Shown: positions 9,852 to 34,485, numbered from the stretch's first letter. The stretch: DNA of 39,500 nt from Escherichia phage Baskent_phicoli_1 (PP766721.1); one strand, 5' to 3'. Made by a program: numbers and translations. Notes: generated by a model not told the origin, from the sequence alone.

Positions 9852-10322
9852 ATGTATATTCGCAAGGCTACGGAACCAGATGTCCACCACTTTCTGTGGC
9901 ATCTTTCAGCAGATGATGTTAATGAGTGCAAAGCAAACTATGGGTCAACCGTTGGTCTCTCTGAAAGACTGCTTAAGCACCTATCTCCGTCATCTGTGGT
10001 TTTAACGAACGGTGTAGGAGAAGTGTTTGCCTATGGCGGAAACCAAGGGGATAACGTGTGGTTCTTGACTTCCGGTCAGGTCTACAAGCTGAGACCTAAA
10101 GAGAAGAGAGAGTTCATAAAGCGTATCTCTGAGTACAGGGACTTAATGTTAGACCAATACGGGACCATCTGGAACTACGTGTGGTCAGGCAATAAGTCTC
10201 ACATTAAATTCTTGAAGTTGCTTGGAGCTAAATTCCATGATGATTGGACTGTAAGCCCAGTAACTGGTGAGCGTTTTCAACTATTCACTATCTCTAAGGA
10301 GGACGTATGTGCGAGCCAGTAA
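9852..10322 (+). CDS. gp13: Internal virion protein, gene 13
   Basis: 156 aa at the T7 gene 13 position, overlapping gene 14 start. Confidence 0.8.
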   Translation: MYIRKATEPDVHHFLWHLSADDVNECKANYGSTVGLSERLLKHLSPSSVVLTNGVGEVFAYGGNQGDNVWFLTSGQVYKLRPKEKREFIKRISEYRDLMLDQYGTIWNYVWSGNKSHIKFLKLLGAKFHDDWTVSPVTGERFQLFTISKEDVCASQ

Positions 10323-10894
10323 GTATCGGCATGGGTATTATGGCTGTAGCTGGTGCCACTATGTCCGCATCCCAGCAGGCCAAGGCCGAGGGTGCTGCTA
10401 TCGACGCTCAGAACCGACAGGCTCAGGAAATGGTTAAGCAGATGAACTACTCTGACGCCAACCTGAAGATGCAGGAGCGAGACCTGAAGGAGCAGCAGAT
10501 GGCTGAACTGACAGAGACCACGTTAAACGGTATCCGCAATCAGGGTATGGTCCGAGCTGCGGTAGCTGAGTCCGGTCTGGAAGGTAACTCTATGGACAGG
10601 ATTGAACGTCAGGTCGAGGGAGACACAGTCAAGGAGAGGGCCGGGATTACCGAAAGTTACAACCGTGACTATGCGGCTATCTTCGGGAACCGTATCGCCA
10701 ACATTGAGAACACCAAGTCTGCTATCCGTGGTCAAGGTAAAATCATCAAGACCAGCCCACTAGCTCACGCACTTAATGTTGCAAGCGCCGGGATGCAAGG
10801 GTACGCTGCTGGTAAGTCAATCTCTGGGGCATCAAGCTCTGGTGGTTCTGCACCGATTAGTGCTGCTAAAGGCACACCTACAGGTCATAGCTAA
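10307..10894 (+). CDS. gp14: Internal virion (core) protein, gene 14
   Basis: 195 aa; MC... N-terminus, EGxSMDRI, YxRDYxAIF and C-terminal AAKGTxTG as in T7 gp14 (196 aa). Confidence 0.9.
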   Translation: MCEPVSIGMGIMAVAGATMSASQQAKAEGAAIDAQNRQAQEMVKQMNYSDANLKMQERDLKEQQMAELTETTLNGIRNQGMVRAAVAESGLEGNSMDRIERQVEGDTVKERAGITESYNRDYAAIFGNRIANIENTKSAIRGQGKIIKTSPLAHALNVASAGMQGYAAGKSISGASSSGGSAPISAAKGTPTGHS

Positions 10895-10905
10895 GAGGAG
10901 GACTA

Positions 10906-13188
10906 ATGGCTAGTAATATTGAATCAGCTCTGGCTAATCGGACTATGGGTCGTGGCAGAGCGCCTGGTAAAACTATCGCCGTAAACTATCAAGCAGCCAG
11001 CGTTCAGGCTCCGACTGGTGACTCCGGTCTGGCCCGTGCGTTAACCAACTTCGTTGAGTCTGGGACTGGATTGTACAAGCAGTTCAAAGACGATGAGAAG
11101 ACCAGAGCTGACGAGCGGTCTAACGAGATTATCCGTAAGCTGACACCTCAGCAAAGACGTGAGGCTATCCAGAACGGCACACTGCTGTATCAGGACGACC
11201 CTTACGCTATGGAAGCACTTCGAGTCAAGACTGGACGTAACGCTGCCTTTGCGGTGGATGACGAGATTAACGTTAAGATTCAGAACGGTGAGTTCCGTAC
11301 ACGTCAGGAAATGGAAGAATATCGCCACCAGCGACTTCAGGATGCAGCTACGTCCTATGCTGAAGAGGCGGGTATTAACCCTACCGACGAGTTCTTCCAG
11401 CGTGGATTCAACGATAACATCACGGACCGAAACATCGCTATCTATGGGTCTTTCAATAAGTATTTCAGCAAGCAGTCTGAAGAGACAGCAATGTTGAACA
11501 CTCGTATTGAGATGAACTCGTTCCTTAACGATGGGGACCTGATGCGTTCGCCTGAGTCTGGAAAGACCTTCATGGCCTACCTTCGTGATGGACTGACGAC
11601 TGCTGCTATCCCTTCGGACCAGCGAGCACGAGAGGTCATTACCCAGACGGTCCGTGACGCAATCCAGAAGTCTGGTGGCTCAAACTTCCTACAGCAAGTA
11701 CGAGGCGAGCGAATCACCCTTAACGGTGTGGACGCTACAGTCGAGGAGATTGTAGGACCTGATGTCTTCAACGCTGCTATTGTTGAGGCACAAGGAACCG
11801 AGTACAAGCTGGTGGCTAAGTATCAGGAGGACTTAGCGTTAGGCGTTCAGTCTGCGATTCTTCAGGACGACCCAACCATCGGTCTTGCCCAGATTCAGAA
11901 ACTCAAGGAGCAGAACAACCTGCTTCAGCCGGGTGAAGAACTCACGCCTCAGCGTCAGATGCTTATTAATGCCGAAGCCAGCTTACTGGAAGCGGTCAAA
12001 CGTAAGTCTGCTGAACAGGCGAAGGAGAACACTAAGTTAATCCAGACCCAGAACAAGCAGCTAGTCATAGACCAAGTGTATCAGCGACGTCTGGCTGGTG
12101 ACAATGTATCCACCAACTATGAGGACCTTCCGGTCTCAGATGCTACAGGTGAGTTCAAGCGTTCGGACATGAACAACTATGCGTCTGCCAAGCTACAGCA
12201 GATTGACCAGATGGACATCCCTGAGGCTGCTAAAGACGCGCATAAGGTGGCATTGTTAAGGGCTGACACTAACAATGGTCCGTTCCGTAATGCCTTCCAG
12301 ACGCTGACTCAGGACGCTGCTGGTGAGTGGCAAGCTGCGGTCATCCGTGGGCAGTACGACCCAGACAAGATGCAACGCTTCGAATCCCTTCGTCGTGCCT
12401 ACACTCAGGACCCTTCAAGTTTTGCTGCCCTGTATCCTGACCAAGCTCAGTTGTTCTCTACGTTCGACCAGATGGACAAGATAGGTCTGGACCCTCAGAC
12501 GATGATTGAGGCTGATAAGCAAGCTGCAAGTCAAAGCCGTGAGATGCGCATGGAGTCAGACAAGGCGTGGCAGGAGTTGAAGAACGACTCCAAGAACGCC
12601 CAGTTGTCTCGCCTCCCAACGTCTCTGGACTCAAGTGCTCGTAAGGTCTGGGACTCATGGTACTATCGTACAGGTAACGCTGACGCCGCAACTCAGCAGA
12701 CTCAACGCTGGCTGAATGAGAACACCGTAACGTTCCAGTCTGAAGGTTCTGACGGTAAGTCCATCGGCATGGTGTCAAAACACCAGCTTATGGTCGGGGA
12801 TAACCCAGAGTCGTGGCAGGTTGGCCGAGACATTATCGACACAGCTCGTAAGCAGCTCATTAAAGCCAACCCTTGGGTAGTGAACTCTCAGTTGTCCGTT
12901 GTTGAACAGAATGGCTCTATCTTCCTCCAAGACGCTACAGGTACTATTCGTATTCGCTACGATAAGGAACTTGTAGGTAAACTCTACCGCGAACAACAGC
13001 AGAAGGCACAAGATGCCGCATACGCTCAGGCAGAACGTGACGCTAACAAGCGAGCGCGTATCGTCGGGACTAAAGCTGCTGGTGATAAACGTCGAGCTGA
13101 CCGAGAGGCCAACATCGAGAAGCGCGGAGGGATGTACAATGACGTCTCACTGGAGGGTATCGCAAACGCACTAATCGGTAAGGAGTAA
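10906..13188 (+). CDS. gp15: Internal virion (core) protein, gene 15
   Basis: 760 aa; position and size as T7 gp15 (747 aa). Confidence 0.9.
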   Translation: MASNIESALANRTMGRGRAPGKTIAVNYQAASVQAPTGDSGLARALTNFVESGTGLYKQFKDDEKTRADERSNEIIRKLTPQQRREAIQNGTLLYQDDPYAMEALRVKTGRNAAFAVDDEINVKIQNGEFRTRQEMEEYRHQRLQDAATSYAEEAGINPTDEFFQRGFNDNITDRNIAIYGSFNKYFSKQSEETAMLNTRIEMNSFLNDGDLMRSPESGKTFMAYLRDGLTTAAIPSDQRAREVITQTVRDAIQKSGGSNFLQQVRGERITLNGVDATVEEIVGPDVFNAAIVEAQGTEYKLVAKYQEDLALGVQSAILQDDPTIGLAQIQKLKEQNNLLQPGEELTPQRQMLINAEASLLEAVKRKSAEQAKENTKLIQTQNKQLVIDQVYQRRLAGDNVSTNYEDLPVSDATGEFKRSDMNNYASAKLQQIDQMDIPEAAKDAHKVALLRADTNNGPFRNAFQTLTQDAAGEWQAAVIRGQYDPDKMQRFESLRRAYTQDPSSFAALYPDQAQLFSTFDQMDKIGLDPQTMIEADKQAASQSREMRMESDKAWQELKNDSKNAQLSRLPTSLDSSARKVWDSWYYRTGNADAATQQTQRWLNENTVTFQSEGSDGKSIGMVSKHQLMVGDNPESWQVGRDIIDTARKQLIKANPWVVNSQLSVVEQNGSIFLQDATGTIRIRYDKELVGKLYREQQQKAQDAAYAQAERDANKRARIVGTKAAGDKRRADREANIEKRGGMYNDVSLEGIANALIGKE

Positions 13189-31030: not shown

Positions 31031-31291
31031 ATGTCTAAGAACTTAATGTTCAACCGTTATTCCAATACCTTCCACCTGTCCAACAACCCGTTCGCTTGCA
31101 TTAAGAGAAACGAGAAGCTGGGCTACTTCGGTAAGGCCGTTAAGCTGTCACCTACAGTATTCGCTCTGATTACTCCGGGCAAAGCTGAAGAGGCTCGCCA
31201 GAAGCGTGAGACAAATGTGCCCGTGGTCTACACCAAGTGGCCCCGCGTTCGTCTGTTCGTTGAGTTCGTGAAGGAGGTGATAAATGATTAA
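31031..31291 (+). CDS. Hypothetical protein (gene 1.4-1.6 region)
   Basis: 86 aa ORF with AAGGAG SD; synteny only. Confidence 0.55.
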   Translation: MSKNLMFNRYSNTFHLSNNPFACIKRNEKLGYFGKAVKLSPTVFALITPGKAEEARQKRETNVPVVYTKWPRVRLFVEFVKEVIND

Positions 31292-31727
31292 GGTGGGGGA
31301 TATAGTTAAATATGTTGGACCAATTAACACCCACAGAGGACGCTCATGTGGCAAGGTGATAATGGTTAAAAATGAGCACATAGCTGTTGTTAAGTGGCCC
31401 CGTTTATCTGAACCACTTAGTCACTCCATTAGTGCCTTAAGTATTACCAATCAGGATCAGGCCGAGCCGACAACCGTAGGTCATGAAGATATCGTCCGCA
31501 AGCCATCCCACTATCAGGTCTTTGACGGTGTTGAGTCCATTGAGATTATAGCTCGGTCCATGACCATGAGCGAGTTCCGTGGGTTCTGCATGGGTAACGT
31601 CCTGAAGTATCGACTACGGGCTGGTAAGAAGTCCGAGCTGGCTACTATGGAGAAGGACCTGAACAAAGCAGCCTTCTATCAGGAGCTGTTCGACCTGCAT
31701 AAAGGTAAGTGCTATGCTGCCGAGTGA
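31284..31727 (+). CDS. gp1.7: Nucleotide kinase gp1.7 homolog
   Basis: C-terminal half KPSHYxxFDxxExIExIARSMTxxxFxGxCxGNxLKYRLRAGKKSELAxxEKDLxKAxFYxELFxxHKxKCYA matches T7 gp1.7. Confidence 0.8.
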   Translation: MIKVGDIVKYVGPINTHRGRSCGKVIMVKNEHIAVVKWPRLSEPLSHSISALSITNQDQAEPTTVGHEDIVRKPSHYQVFDGVESIEIIARSMTMSEFRGFCMGNVLKYRLRAGKKSELATMEKDLNKAAFYQELFDLHKGKCYAAE

Positions 31728-31921: not shown

Positions 31922-32080
31922 ATGAGTGACGCCGAGAAGAAATACATCGTTGAGCTTGAGGGCCGCACTCAGTACTTCGAGGTTCCTGTGTACGCAAAGT
32001 CTCTTGAAGAGGCTACCCTGAAGTCCCAAGAGTATGAGGACGCTGGGTTTGTGGTCGGACGGATTCGTCCTGAGACCTAA
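31922..32080 (+). CDS. gp2: Host RNA polymerase inhibitor gp2 homolog
   Basis: 52 aa ORF below track cutoff; [13 protein letters not shown]...[10 protein letters not shown] matches T7 Gp2 FEVPIYAETLDEA...AGFEVTRVRP; AAGGAG SD. Confidence 0.75.
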
Positions 32081-32098
32081 ACTATCACTGTAGGACAG
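32076..32098 (+). promoter_or_regulatory. Phage RNAP promoter variant (phi2.5-like), +1 G about 32093
   Basis: TAAACTATCACTGTAGGACAG (G at -3). Confidence 0.6.
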
Positions 32099-32137: not shown

Positions 32138-32836
32138 ATGGCTAAAGAGCAACTGAAGACTTTCACCACTCCGGTAGCTGGTATCGTTGAGCCTTACGCA
32201 TGGCTGAACAAAGCAGACACCAAGTTTAACGAGCGTGGTGAGCATAAGGTTAACCTGACTTTCAGTCTGGATGACCCGAAGGTCCGTAAGATGATTGATG
32301 TCTTACAGAAGATTCACGACGATGCGTATGCGAAAGCACTCGCAGACCACGAGAAGAACCCGCCTCAGGTTCAGCGTGGCAAGAAGCCTATCGAGCCGCG
32401 TGAGGGCGACATGCCGTGGGTTGAGAATGGTGACGGTACTGTTACCATGAAGTTCAAATGCTTTGCGTCTTACCTGAAAGACGGCAAGTCAGAGCCTATC
32501 GTATTACGGTTCTATGACACCGATGCTAAACTCATCCGTGACGTCCCGAATATTGGCGCTGGGTCTAAGCTGAAGGTCAAGTTTAAAGTCCTGCCGTTCA
32601 AGTGGAACGCTGCGACTGGTGCAAGCGTTAAGCTCCAGCTTGAGTCCTGCCTTCTGGTAGAACTGAAGGAGTGGAAAGGTGATGGTGCTGGTGGCGATGG
32701 TGGTTGGGGTGATGATGAAGACCTCGGTACTGGTTACAAAGCGTCAACTGATGGTGACTTCGGGTCGGATGACTTCGGTGACGATGGTTCCGAAGGGGGT
32801 GACGACTCCGGCTCTGGTGGTGATTACGACTTCTAA
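32138..32836 (+). CDS. gp2.5: Single-stranded DNA-binding protein, gene 2.5
   Basis: 232 aa; EPYAWxxKxD, ANPPxVxRGKKP, EGDMPWxxNGDGTxTxKFKC, GSKLKVKF, WNAATGASVKLQLES and acidic tail ending DF as in T7 gp2.5. Confidence 0.95.
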   Translation: MAKEQLKTFTTPVAGIVEPYAWLNKADTKFNERGEHKVNLTFSLDDPKVRKMIDVLQKIHDDAYAKALADHEKNPPQVQRGKKPIEPREGDMPWVENGDGTVTMKFKCFASYLKDGKSEPIVLRFYDTDAKLIRDVPNIGAGSKLKVKFKVLPFKWNAATGASVKLQLESCLLVELKEWKGDGAGGDGGWGDDEDLGTGYKASTDGDFGSDDFGDDGSEGGDDSGSGGDYDF

Positions 32837-33291
32837 TGGCCCAATGGTCTGCAAAACGGGGGCACTCTGTGGGTGCCTACCGCTCTGGACTTGAAGCCAA
32901 GAACCAGCAGTGGCTGGAACAGAATGGCGTCAAAGCGGAGTACGAAAGCCATTATATCAACTATGTGATTCCGGCTTCCGACCACAAGTACACACCAGAC
33001 TTTATCCTTCCTAACGGTATCATCGTTGAGACCAAAGGTATCTTCGATAGTGAAGACCGTAAGAAGCACCTTCTGGTACGAGAACAGCACCCAGAGTTAG
33101 ACATCCGGTTCGTGTTCTCAAGTTCACGCTCCAAGTTATACAAAGGGTCTCCGACCACGTATGGCGCATGGTGCGAAAAGAACGGCTATAAGTATGCCGA
33201 TAAGTTCATCCCGGTTGAGTGGTTGCGAGAGGCGACTGTACGTCTGCCTTCAGGTATACTCATTCCCAAGAAGAAAGGAGTTAAGAAATGA
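32836..33291 (+). CDS. gp3: Endonuclease I (Holliday junction resolvase), gene 3
   Basis: 151 aa; GAxRSGLE, YVIPASxHxYTPDFxLPNGIxVETKG, DRKKHLLxREQHPELDIRxVFSSSRxKLYKGSPTxYG match T7 gp3. Confidence 0.95.
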   Translation: MAQWSAKRGHSVGAYRSGLEAKNQQWLEQNGVKAEYESHYINYVIPASDHKYTPDFILPNGIIVETKGIFDSEDRKKHLLVREQHPELDIRFVFSSSRSKLYKGSPTTYGAWCEKNGYKYADKFIPVEWLREATVRLPSGILIPKKKGVKK

Positions 33292-33779
33292 GCAAGAAGT
33301 TTAAACTGTCAGTAGATACGTGTGGCTGGCCTCGTGGAACTATCGTTACCAAGTGTGAGAAGGCTCCCAGATCCTATCCGCACATGACCCTAGTTGAGTG
33401 CCGTACTCCAGGCCGCTACAAACACGGGTCTAACGGCTACGATACTCAGCCTGATGGTATGTGGGGAGCATGGGTCTATGATCATCAACTTGAGGAAATC
33501 AAGCCGGAAGAGAAACTCACTGGTGTACAGACCACTCAAGTCCTGCCAGCTTCGAGCGTACCGCCTGTGACTGTGAAGCGTGAAGTCCTGACCATCGACA
33601 AGATTGGTGTAGGCCAGACGTTCATCGTCCACGGAAAGCCTGAAGAAGTTTACGTTAAGATTAGCAACTCACACGTCTTCAACCATAAGCGTCTCCAGAT
33701 GCACACCACGGACGCACAACGCTTCACCCAGCACCTGAATCTGGTGGTCGTAGAATTGGTGGTGTACAATGGTAAGTAA
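33288..33779 (+). CDS. Hypothetical protein (163 aa) inserted between endonuclease I and amidase genes
   Basis: ORF overlapping both neighbours by a few bases; no T7 counterpart at this position; no motif recognised. Confidence 0.6.
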   Translation: MSKKFKLSVDTCGWPRGTIVTKCEKAPRSYPHMTLVECRTPGRYKHGSNGYDTQPDGMWGAWVYDHQLEEIKPEEKLTGVQTTQVLPASSVPPVTVKREVLTIDKIGVGQTFIVHGKPEEVYVKISNSHVFNHKRLQMHTTDAQRFTQHLNLVVVELVVYNGK

Positions 33780-34227
33780 GGTACAGTTCAACCCCCGGTC
33801 CCGGACTGACGCTATCTTCGTTCACTGTTCGGCTACCAAGCCAGAGATGGACATCGGGGTAGAGACAATCCGTATGTGGCACAAGCAGCAAGGCTGGCTG
33901 GACGTAGGCTACCACTTTATCATCAAGCGCGATGGCACTGTGGAAGAGGGTCGCCCGGTCAATGTCGTAGGGTCACACGTTAAGGACTGGAACTCCAAGT
34001 CCGTAGGCGTCTGCCTTGTAGGTGGAATCAACGCTAAGGGCAAGTTTGAAGCTAACTTCACTCCGGCTCAGATGAACTCCCTGCGAAACAAGCTGGCTGA
34101 CCTGAAGGCCATGTATCCTCAGGCTGAAATAAAAGCACACCATGACGTAGCGCCAAAGGCGTGTCCAAGTTTCGACTTGCAACGCTGGCTGTCTACCAAC
34201 GAGCTGGTCACTTCCGACCATGGTTAA
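33769..34227 (+). CDS. gp3.5: N-acetylmuramoyl-L-alanine amidase (T7 lysozyme, gene 3.5)
   Basis: 152 aa; TDAIFVHCSATKP, WHKxQGWLDVGYHFIIKRDGTVE, GVCLVGGI, KGKFxANFTPAQM, AHHxVAPKACPSFDL, NELVTSD match T7 gp3.5. Confidence 0.96.
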   Translation: MVSKVQFNPRSRTDAIFVHCSATKPEMDIGVETIRMWHKQQGWLDVGYHFIIKRDGTVEEGRPVNVVGSHVKDWNSKSVGVCLVGGINAKGKFEANFTPAQMNSLRNKLADLKAMYPQAEIKAHHDVAPKACPSFDLQRWLSTNELVTSDHG

Positions 34228-34251: not shown

Positions 34252-34467
34252 ATGATTAAACTTATCGAATTTCTGGGTCGTCTGGTGGTGCGTGGTTATC
34301 GTCGCGCTGCGGCTATGGAACGAAAGGTAGCAGAGAAGTCTGCTGACGGTGCGGCTGATGCTGCTGCTCTGGCTGACAAGCTAACCATCACATCACTGGA
34401 AGCTGGCATGAGGGCGCGTCAAGCTGATACCAAGGCTGACCAGTTGGCCCAGTTCTTCAAAGCCTAA
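34252..34467 (+). CDS. Hypothetical small protein (71 aa)
   Basis: ORF with AAGGAGA SD; Ala-rich; ends QLAQFFKA. Confidence 0.55.
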   Translation: MIKLIEFLGRLVVRGYRRAAAMERKVAEKSADGAADAAALADKLTITSLEAGMRARQADTKADQLAQFFKA

Positions 34468-34485
34468 ACTATCACCTTAGGGATG
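34463..34485 (+). promoter_or_regulatory. Degenerate phage promoter-like sequence upstream of gene 4
   Basis: TAAACTATCACCTTAGGGAT: two mismatches in the -4/-3 melting region. Confidence 0.35.

Follow-up and report, generated by a model that had tools for sequence, protein, structure and literature searches.

gp3.2 of Kayfunavirus-type phages joins a constant C-terminal core to an exchangeable and hypervariable N-terminal module

In phage T7, gene 3 (10257-10706) adjoins gene 3.5 (10706-11161) directly, and no open reading frame (ORF) lies in between. In Escherichia phage Baskent_phicoli_1 (PP766721.1), which was analysed as one stretch of 39,500 nucleotides (nt; hereafter the window), an ORF of 163 amino acids (aa) is situated between the same two genes, starting with ATG at position 33288 and ending at 33779 on the + strand. 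What is this gene, and what may its product do for the phage? An initial annotation made from the sequence of the window had placed the ORF exactly there and had stated that it lacks a T7 counterpart, and both statements hold. The missing counterpart is no discovery, yet, given that this orphan has been annotated since the K1F and EcoDS1 genomes. The ORF is a genuine protein-coding gene and represents a new allele of a known family, for which the annotation gp3.2 already exists; the ORF as such is thus no novelty. The novelty lies in the anatomy of gp3.2, namely, a constant core combined with an exchangeable, hypervariable N-terminal module (N-module), which the initial annotation overlooked together with the long-standing name of the gene in K1F, EcoDS1 and Dev2.

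The length of the ORF was not decisive for its coding status because antisense non-genic ORFs of 156-169 aa occur in the same window. The gp3.2 frame is open in 44 of 44 related loci, and insertions and deletions are found solely in multiples of three. The ratio of nonsynonymous to synonymous substitution rates (dN/dS) was calculated with the Nei-Gojobori method from 18 distinct alleles of type A, the N-module type of the window. The values for whole genes were 0.12 (gene 3), 0.10 (gene 3.5) and 0.23 (gp3.2), and within gp3.2 the ratio fell from 0.28 (aa 1-72) through 0.16 (linker) to 0.10 (aa 96-163), the last being level with the two neighbouring genes. Synonymous changes have accumulated freely (dS 0.39-0.93, with 0.39 in the core), and conservation therefore acts at the protein level. 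A non-coding spacer, which the initial annotation had named as the outcome that would overturn its claim, is contradicted by the open frames and by this constraint. Two antisense ORFs (33390-33632 and 33724-33915) were judged spurious, since the substitution pattern suits the + frame.

The window belongs to Kayfunavirus and shares 95% nt identity with EcoDS1. A 1.5-kb query around the ORF matched 224 phage records, the best being EcoDS1 (95% nt), followed by K1F, LM33_P1, Bas105 and other Kayfunavirus genomes. The records of K1F, EcoDS1 and Dev2 name the gene "gp3.2", and other records list its product as a "hypothetical protein". EcoDS1 gp3.2 and K1F gp3.2 are the same gene as that of the window, with 91% and 78.5% aa identity over the full length and with the same slot and overlaps; the N-module of the window is a distinct allele, in which 14 loop residues differ from EcoDS1, and no function is assigned to the EcoDS1 and K1F proteins either. 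Profile matches were obtained to PHROG 16385 across aa 1-163 (E=2.1e-92) and to PHROG 15211 across aa 94-163 (E=5.7e-40), both being families without an assigned function. Among 50,697 phage records searched by tblastn, the C-terminal part was present in 220 and the whole protein in 54, and the matches were confined to Kayfunavirus-type genomes and one divergent Providencia phage of the Studiervirinae. When a profile of 45 homologues was compared with 1.84 billion representative proteins, only 17 clusters were recovered, and every examined neighbourhood was that of a T7-like phage; two divergent members with 57% core identity sit in the same slot between endonuclease I and the amidase. A second large homology search with divergent cores yielded just eight proteins, and little was gained.

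Two K1F records (NC_007456 / DQ111067 and AM084414) disagree on gp3.2. In one of them the alignment is limited to residues 1-141, with two "unknown" ORFs annotated in the region, whereas the other contains an intact 157-aa gene; one of the deposits probably has a frameshift from sequencing. Records labelled "Enterococcus phage" also appeared among the near-identical Kayfunavirus matches, which is implausible for an enterobacterial phage genus, and these are probably mislabelled or contaminated deposits.

The C-terminal core (aa 96-163) is the constant part of gp3.2, being present in about 220 phage records compared with 55 for the type A module. It is nearly invariant and confined to Kayfunavirus-type genomes and close Studiervirinae relatives, and it was found in almost all of those examined. 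All residues of the motif G..F…Y…SNSHxFN….QMHTT…RF are present in the window protein and are invariant in the three alignments (A1, A2 and A3), and the motif persists even at 35-57% identity. Polar residues (S, N, S, H, N, Q, H, T, T, R) account for nearly all invariant positions, which are grouped on one hairpin in the predicted model. The isoelectric point (pI) of the core is 9.5-9.8 in four of five divergent representatives, and the Providencia-type core is neutral (pI 6.8). Its dN/dS of 0.09-0.10 is accompanied by a normal dS.

Many phages encode the core by itself. Core-only genes of 74 aa were found in Dev2 and 13 IMG/VR loci, as well as in many Salmonella, Citrobacter, Cronobacter and Shigella phages, and the short form accounts for about 45% of records, a rough estimate from an evenly spaced listing of the tblastn matches. 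The short gp3.2 of the type seen in Cronobacter phage Dev2 (PHROG 15211) is homologous to aa 94-163 of the window protein (~80% identity). It occupies the same slot and likewise overlaps gene 3.5 by 11 nt, but unlike the window protein it has neither the linker nor an N-terminal module. Independent in-frame deletions of the N-module with retention of the core were seen in three further homologues (P0123, P0140 and P0142). The core appears able to function alone because the short gp3.2 consists of nothing else, and it is presumably the selected unit of gp3.2.

The N-terminal part behaves as a replaceable cassette. In blastn comparisons with Vec13, phiYIO1-1 and PRF-SP4, the similarity stops at 33291 and resumes at 33530-33538; the flanks are 95-96% identical and the middle is dissimilar, so that 33292-33530 represents an exchangeable unit. 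The conserved 5' arm of the cassette is formed by the last ~20 nt of gene 3, which include the ribosome-binding site of gp3.2, and the end of gene 3, AGAAAGGAGTTAAGAAATGA, is kept in at least 40 loci. The 3' arm is the 3' part of the linker, QVLPASSVPPVT, which is common to the long forms regardless of their N-module type. Linkers with short in-frame tandem duplications (TGVQT twice and PEVGEQT twice) were observed in two homologues, P0032 and P0098, suggesting that the linker is a length-tolerant flexible spacer prone to slippage.

At least seven unrelated N-module types are joined to the same core. Type A, to which the window and K1F belong, was counted in 55 records, type B (Vec13) in 27 and type C (phiYIO1-1 and Enterobacter phages) in 10; P0125, P0128, P0131 and Providencia phages represent further types. 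Some proteins of 220-227 aa carry two modules in tandem, either A+B or A+C, and types B and C were seen in the gp3.2 slot only. A PHROG scan of seven other N-modules returned no significant match, and the base composition of the cassette gave no signal of foreign origin (GC 0.506 against 0.501 for the genome).

The type A module consists of a conserved scaffold (GWPxGTIVTKC, LVE and QPxGMWGAWV) and hypervariable loops (aa 9-12, 24-34, 39-43, 49-52 and 64-67). The loop positions carry 5-9 different residues among the 18 alleles and alternate with the scaffold, and dN reaches 0.26 in the N-module compared with 0.04 in the core. Between the window and EcoDS1, 14 codons of aa 1-72 are replaced (10 of them by a single nucleotide) and 2 differ synonymously, in contrast to 1 replacement and 14 synonymous differences in aa 73-163 (Fisher p=1.5e-5). 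An independent pair, Bas105 and the LM33_P1 group, showed 22.5 nonsynonymous to 2.5 synonymous differences. The best identity of the window N-module to any deposited phage is 84.7%, though the flanks are ~95% identical at the nt level. Parsimony counts on the tree gave omega values of ~0.51 for the N-module and 0.09 for the core; within the N-module, omega was ~0.9 at 26 variable codons, which were picked post hoc, and 0.13 at the other 46. The loops of the N-module thus evolve rapidly, and positive selection on them is no more than suggested.

Structure prediction points to two small barrels. An AlphaFold model from the 45-sequence alignment contained an all-beta domain at aa 1-72 with a predicted local distance difference test score (pLDDT) of ~90, and the C-terminal half had no usable model (pLDDT <50) because the alignment was invariant there. 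With divergent members added, the mean pLDDT of the C-terminal half rose to 80, with 86-94 in the core. Both halves are predicted to adopt an SH3-like beta-barrel fold, five- or six-stranded and with structural matches to SH3-type domains. The likeness to known SH3-like barrels (eukaryotic SH3, FeoA, KOW/EF-P domain I, ribosomal L2 and Tudor-like CarD/UvrD) is one of fold only, with 6-20% identity, no Pfam match and no sequence relationship, and permits no transfer of function.

Database screens were largely negative. Scans of the ORF against Pfam, NCBIfam and PADLOC returned no match, a PDB sequence profile search gave one chance match (E=0.93), and a BFVD fold search recovered only the own family and uncharacterised phage proteins of ~75 aa. 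No Pfam SH3 family of the canonical eukaryote type matched at E<=1-5, no endolysin SH3b module (SH3_3, SH3_5 and related) matched at E<=5 in 23 family members, and neither a profile match nor a strong structural match linked gp3.2 to known defence or anti-defence families (PADLOC models; Tad2/DUF2829). The absence of a recognisable catalytic motif, already remarked in the initial annotation, agrees with these scans and with the predicted small barrels, and the fold-level similarity would imply neither a catalytic nor a known binding motif. Three candidates were rejected. A zinc site formed by Cys/His residues of the N-module was discarded since only C23 is invariant and C12 and C38 vary. An internal duplication relating the N-module to the core had an hhalign probability <0.1%, and the two halves are not detectably related. 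Imm11 (PF07791) scored 11.5-12 bits on the core against a gathering threshold of 22.1; the match, seen in 5 of 23 members, covered 27 residues where the model has 194 positions, which is chance level.

The features of the locus are listed in Table 1. The gene 3 stop and the gp3.2 start share ATGA, resulting in a 4-nt overlap at 33288-33291. The junction with gene 3.5 comprises a weak Shine-Dalgarno-like GGTGGTG (33758-33764), the gene 3.5 ATG (33769-33771) and the gp3.2 stop (33777-33779). In all measurable loci gene 3 and gp3.2 overlap by 4 or 1 nt, and gp3.2 overlaps gene 3.5 by 11 nt in 35 of the 38 that could be measured. The endonuclease I/gp3.2/amidase slot with overlapping junctions was found in the window and at least 40 loci, including the divergent P0130 and P0131. 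The overlaps by a few bases reported in the initial annotation are hence conserved across the family, and the translational coupling it proposed is plausible and consistent with them. Salmonella phage PRF-SP4 has an extra 149-aa ORF (L006, 1457-1906; HNH-like by eye only) between gp3.2 and the amidase, and Providencia phage PSTCR2 has two extra small ORFs there (L007, 1705-2278). The 3' side of gp3.2 is an insertion hot spot too, because genes are inserted there in these two phages.

Table 1 Positions of gp3.2, its parts and the surrounding features in the window
Feature	Position	Strand	Remarks
gp3.2 ORF	33288..33779	+	163 aa, stop codon included; PHROG 16385 match; 91% identity to EcoDS1 gp3.2
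N-terminal module type A, aa 1-72	33288..33503	+	predicted SH3-like beta-barrel; conserved scaffold, hypervariable loops
Exchangeable cassette	33292..33530	+	unrelated sequence there in otherwise 95-96% identical phages
Linker, aa 73-95, Pro/Ser-rich	33504..33572	+	low pLDDT; conservation; breakpoints
Constant C-terminal core, aa 96-163	33573..33776	+	basic (pI 9.5) small beta-barrel, predicted; invariant motif
Shine-Dalgarno AAGGAG of gp3.2	33275..33280	+	7 nt 5' of ATG; strong; kept in related loci
gp3.2/gene 3.5 junction	33758..33779	+	11-nt overlap
Gene 3, endonuclease I, upstream neighbour	32836..33291	+	PF05367 E=3e-81
Gene 3.5, N-acetylmuramoyl-L-alanine amidase (Amidase_2), downstream neighbour	33769..34227	+	PF01510 E=2.7e-16; PHROG 822 E=7e-81
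Phage RNA polymerase promoter phi2.5, start of middle (class II) unit with gp3.2	32076..32098	+	0 mismatches to annotated EcoDS1 phi2.5
Next phage promoter, before gene 4, end of unit	34463..34485	+	identical to EcoDS1 pre-gene-4 promoter

The transcription unit that starts at phi2.5 has the order 2.5 - 3 - 3.2 - 3.5 - 3.7. In gp3.2 and its immediate surroundings, searches for phage promoters, terminators, Rfam elements and sigma-70-like sites above background were all negative. The gene for gp2 (31922-32080; PF16857) belongs to the same unit of the window.

On these grounds, gp3.2 is tentatively read as a non-enzymatic protein of middle expression that serves binding or as an adaptor and that combines a constant core with an exchangeable, host-specific module. 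The gene is a class II accessory gene confined to T7 relatives of the Kayfunavirus type, and its translation follows that of endonuclease I and precedes that of the amidase; the predicted protein would comprise two small SH3-like beta-barrels connected by a flexible Pro-rich linker. The C-terminal barrel, as the constant functional core of essentially every member, alone or fused, may bind one conserved partner (a nucleic acid or some macromolecule of phage or host) via its invariant polar SNSHxFN/QMHTT/RF surface. The N-terminal barrel would be an optional specificity module, swapped as a cassette through recombination in the stretch from the gene 3 end to the linker; its loops would diversify, and it may recognise a variable, host-specific factor. 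Host take-over or counter-defence could then be the process in which the protein serves as adaptor or inhibitor.

A nearly invariant core, an in-frame swap hot spot and replacement-driven loops form a pattern typical of phage-host interface proteins. Most small non-enzymatic early or middle proteins of T7 (Ocr, gp0.4, gp1.2, gp2, gp5.5, gp5.7 and gp5.9) inhibit host factors. gp3.2 resembles Ocr, gp2, gp5.5, gp5.7 and gp5.9 by analogy only, in being a small early or middle product that has no catalytic motif and would act by binding; the small T7 take-over proteins have no homology to gp3.2, and none has a constant core with a swappable module. Tail fibres and tailspikes share with gp3.2 a constant anchor, a replaceable specificity part and recombination at conserved junctions, but gp3.2 is a middle-gene product of the DNA-metabolism block, is far smaller and is not known as a virion component. 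Whether gp3.2 founds a new modular class of counter-defence or host take-over adaptors, with a constant barrel and cassette-exchanged recognition barrels under diversifying selection, is doubtful; such a class would mirror, inside the cell, the domain swapping of tail fibres.

Several results weigh against this tentative reading. The strict synteny and coupling with genes 3 and 3.5 fit a phage-internal role equally well, and the loop pattern of the N-module is equally compatible with relaxed constraint. Site-wise parsimony counting of positive selection gave one site at an uncorrected p<0.05 and none after correction. The N-modules show a host bias that would speak for a host-specific module: of ~104 Escherichia-type records 45 have type A, as does 1 of 59 from Salmonella, and type C is present in 7 of 18 from Enterobacter. 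Phylogeny and sampling, however, confound this bias. The barrel prediction for the N-module covers type A only. Full-text literature searches for gp3.2, the accessions, the PHROG identifiers and Kayfunavirus anti-defence returned genome tables only and no functional statement.

Other explanations were also considered. The basic C-terminal barrel might bind DNA or RNA and aid recombination or replication together with gp2.5 and endonuclease I, a possible but rather unlikely role. Sso7d, KOW, Tudor and L2-type barrels bind DNA or RNA, and the core is basic in most divergent representatives; moreover, the phi2.5 unit is shared with the single-stranded-DNA-binding protein and the Holliday-junction resolvase, and gp3.2 is coupled to the gene of the latter. 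This role also agrees with the guess of the initial annotation, which had proposed, solely from gene position, a modulator of replication, recombination or lysis timing; no result prefers such a modulator over host interaction, and it is not favoured here. A nucleic-acid-binding role is, however, at odds with the neutral Providencia-type core, leaves the swappable hypervariable N-modules unexplained, and must account for T7 and T3, which do without a counterpart. A partnership with the gene 3.5 amidase, in which gp3.2 would be an SH3-like wall-binding or regulatory subunit or a modulator of the lysozyme-RNA polymerase interaction with an effect on lysis timing or late transcription, is improbable. 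The 11-nt overlap and the weak Shine-Dalgarno sequence of gene 3.5 would make gp3.5 synthesis dependent on gp3.2 translation and lead to near-stoichiometric co-production, and SH3-type barrels are common wall-binding modules of endolysins. Against this stand the missing SH3b-type Pfam match even at E<=5 and the insertions in PRF-SP4 and PSTCR2, which break the coupling of gp3.2 with gene 3.5 although gp3.2 is retained. Variable modules would also be unexplained, enterobacterial peptidoglycan being conserved, and the T7 amidase needs no such partner.

It is less probable still that the core is a counter-defence effector that binds a small molecule, such as a sponge for immune signalling nucleotides or for a metal, with the N-modules as add-on activities. 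Polar invariant residues on one hairpin of a very small protein would suit such an effector, and known sponges are of similar small size, but no DUF2829 or other anti-defence family matched, and the literature holds no Kayfunavirus defence phenotype that maps to gp3.2. Least probable is a spacer or old insertion that is kept only as a translational bridge bringing ribosomes to gene 3.5 and has no protein function of its own. Overlaps on both sides, the missing gene in T7 and the lack of a known domain would be expected of such a bridge. The selection data contradict it: the core hardly changes in its aa sequence although it varies at synonymous sites, the motif is kept in 57%-identical relatives, and the scaffold of the N-module is constrained (omega 0.13). 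Fold predictions are, in addition, confident for both halves.

Additional observations were made in the surrounding region. Relative to the canonical Kayfunavirus map the window is circularly permuted: it starts with the structural genes, and genes 2.5-4 lie at ~32-36 kb rather than at ~9-12 kb. Phage-promoter-like sites with <=5 mismatches to EcoDS1 promoters are situated at 1294, 1323, 4115, 5121, 9799, 17076, 22428, 25708, 29254, 30984, 32076 and 34463. The product of gene 3.7 (34252-34467, +, 71 aa) matched PHROG 1950 (E=1.7e-24), and a weak match to DUF5471 stayed under the threshold; in the EcoDS1 record gp3.7 has only 31 aa at the same place, and annotations of this small gene thus disagree between records. 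In the gene 1.7 homologue (31284-31727, +, 147 aa), the DUF3310 match is confined to aa 71-133 and is preceded by a beta-rich N-terminal extension of 70 aa, which is absent from the 114-aa gp1.7 of EcoDS1; this is a second class II gene carrying an add-on N-terminal module.

The modular hot-spot architecture of gp3.2 is a modestly interesting lead that is cheap to test and of no categorical novelty. Kayfunaviruses such as K1F, LM33_P1, CLB_P1 and Bas105 have been used in therapy and host-range studies. If the tentative reading is true, a host-specific intracellular determinant at this locus would help to explain strain-level infection outcomes of these phages that receptor binding alone does not predict.
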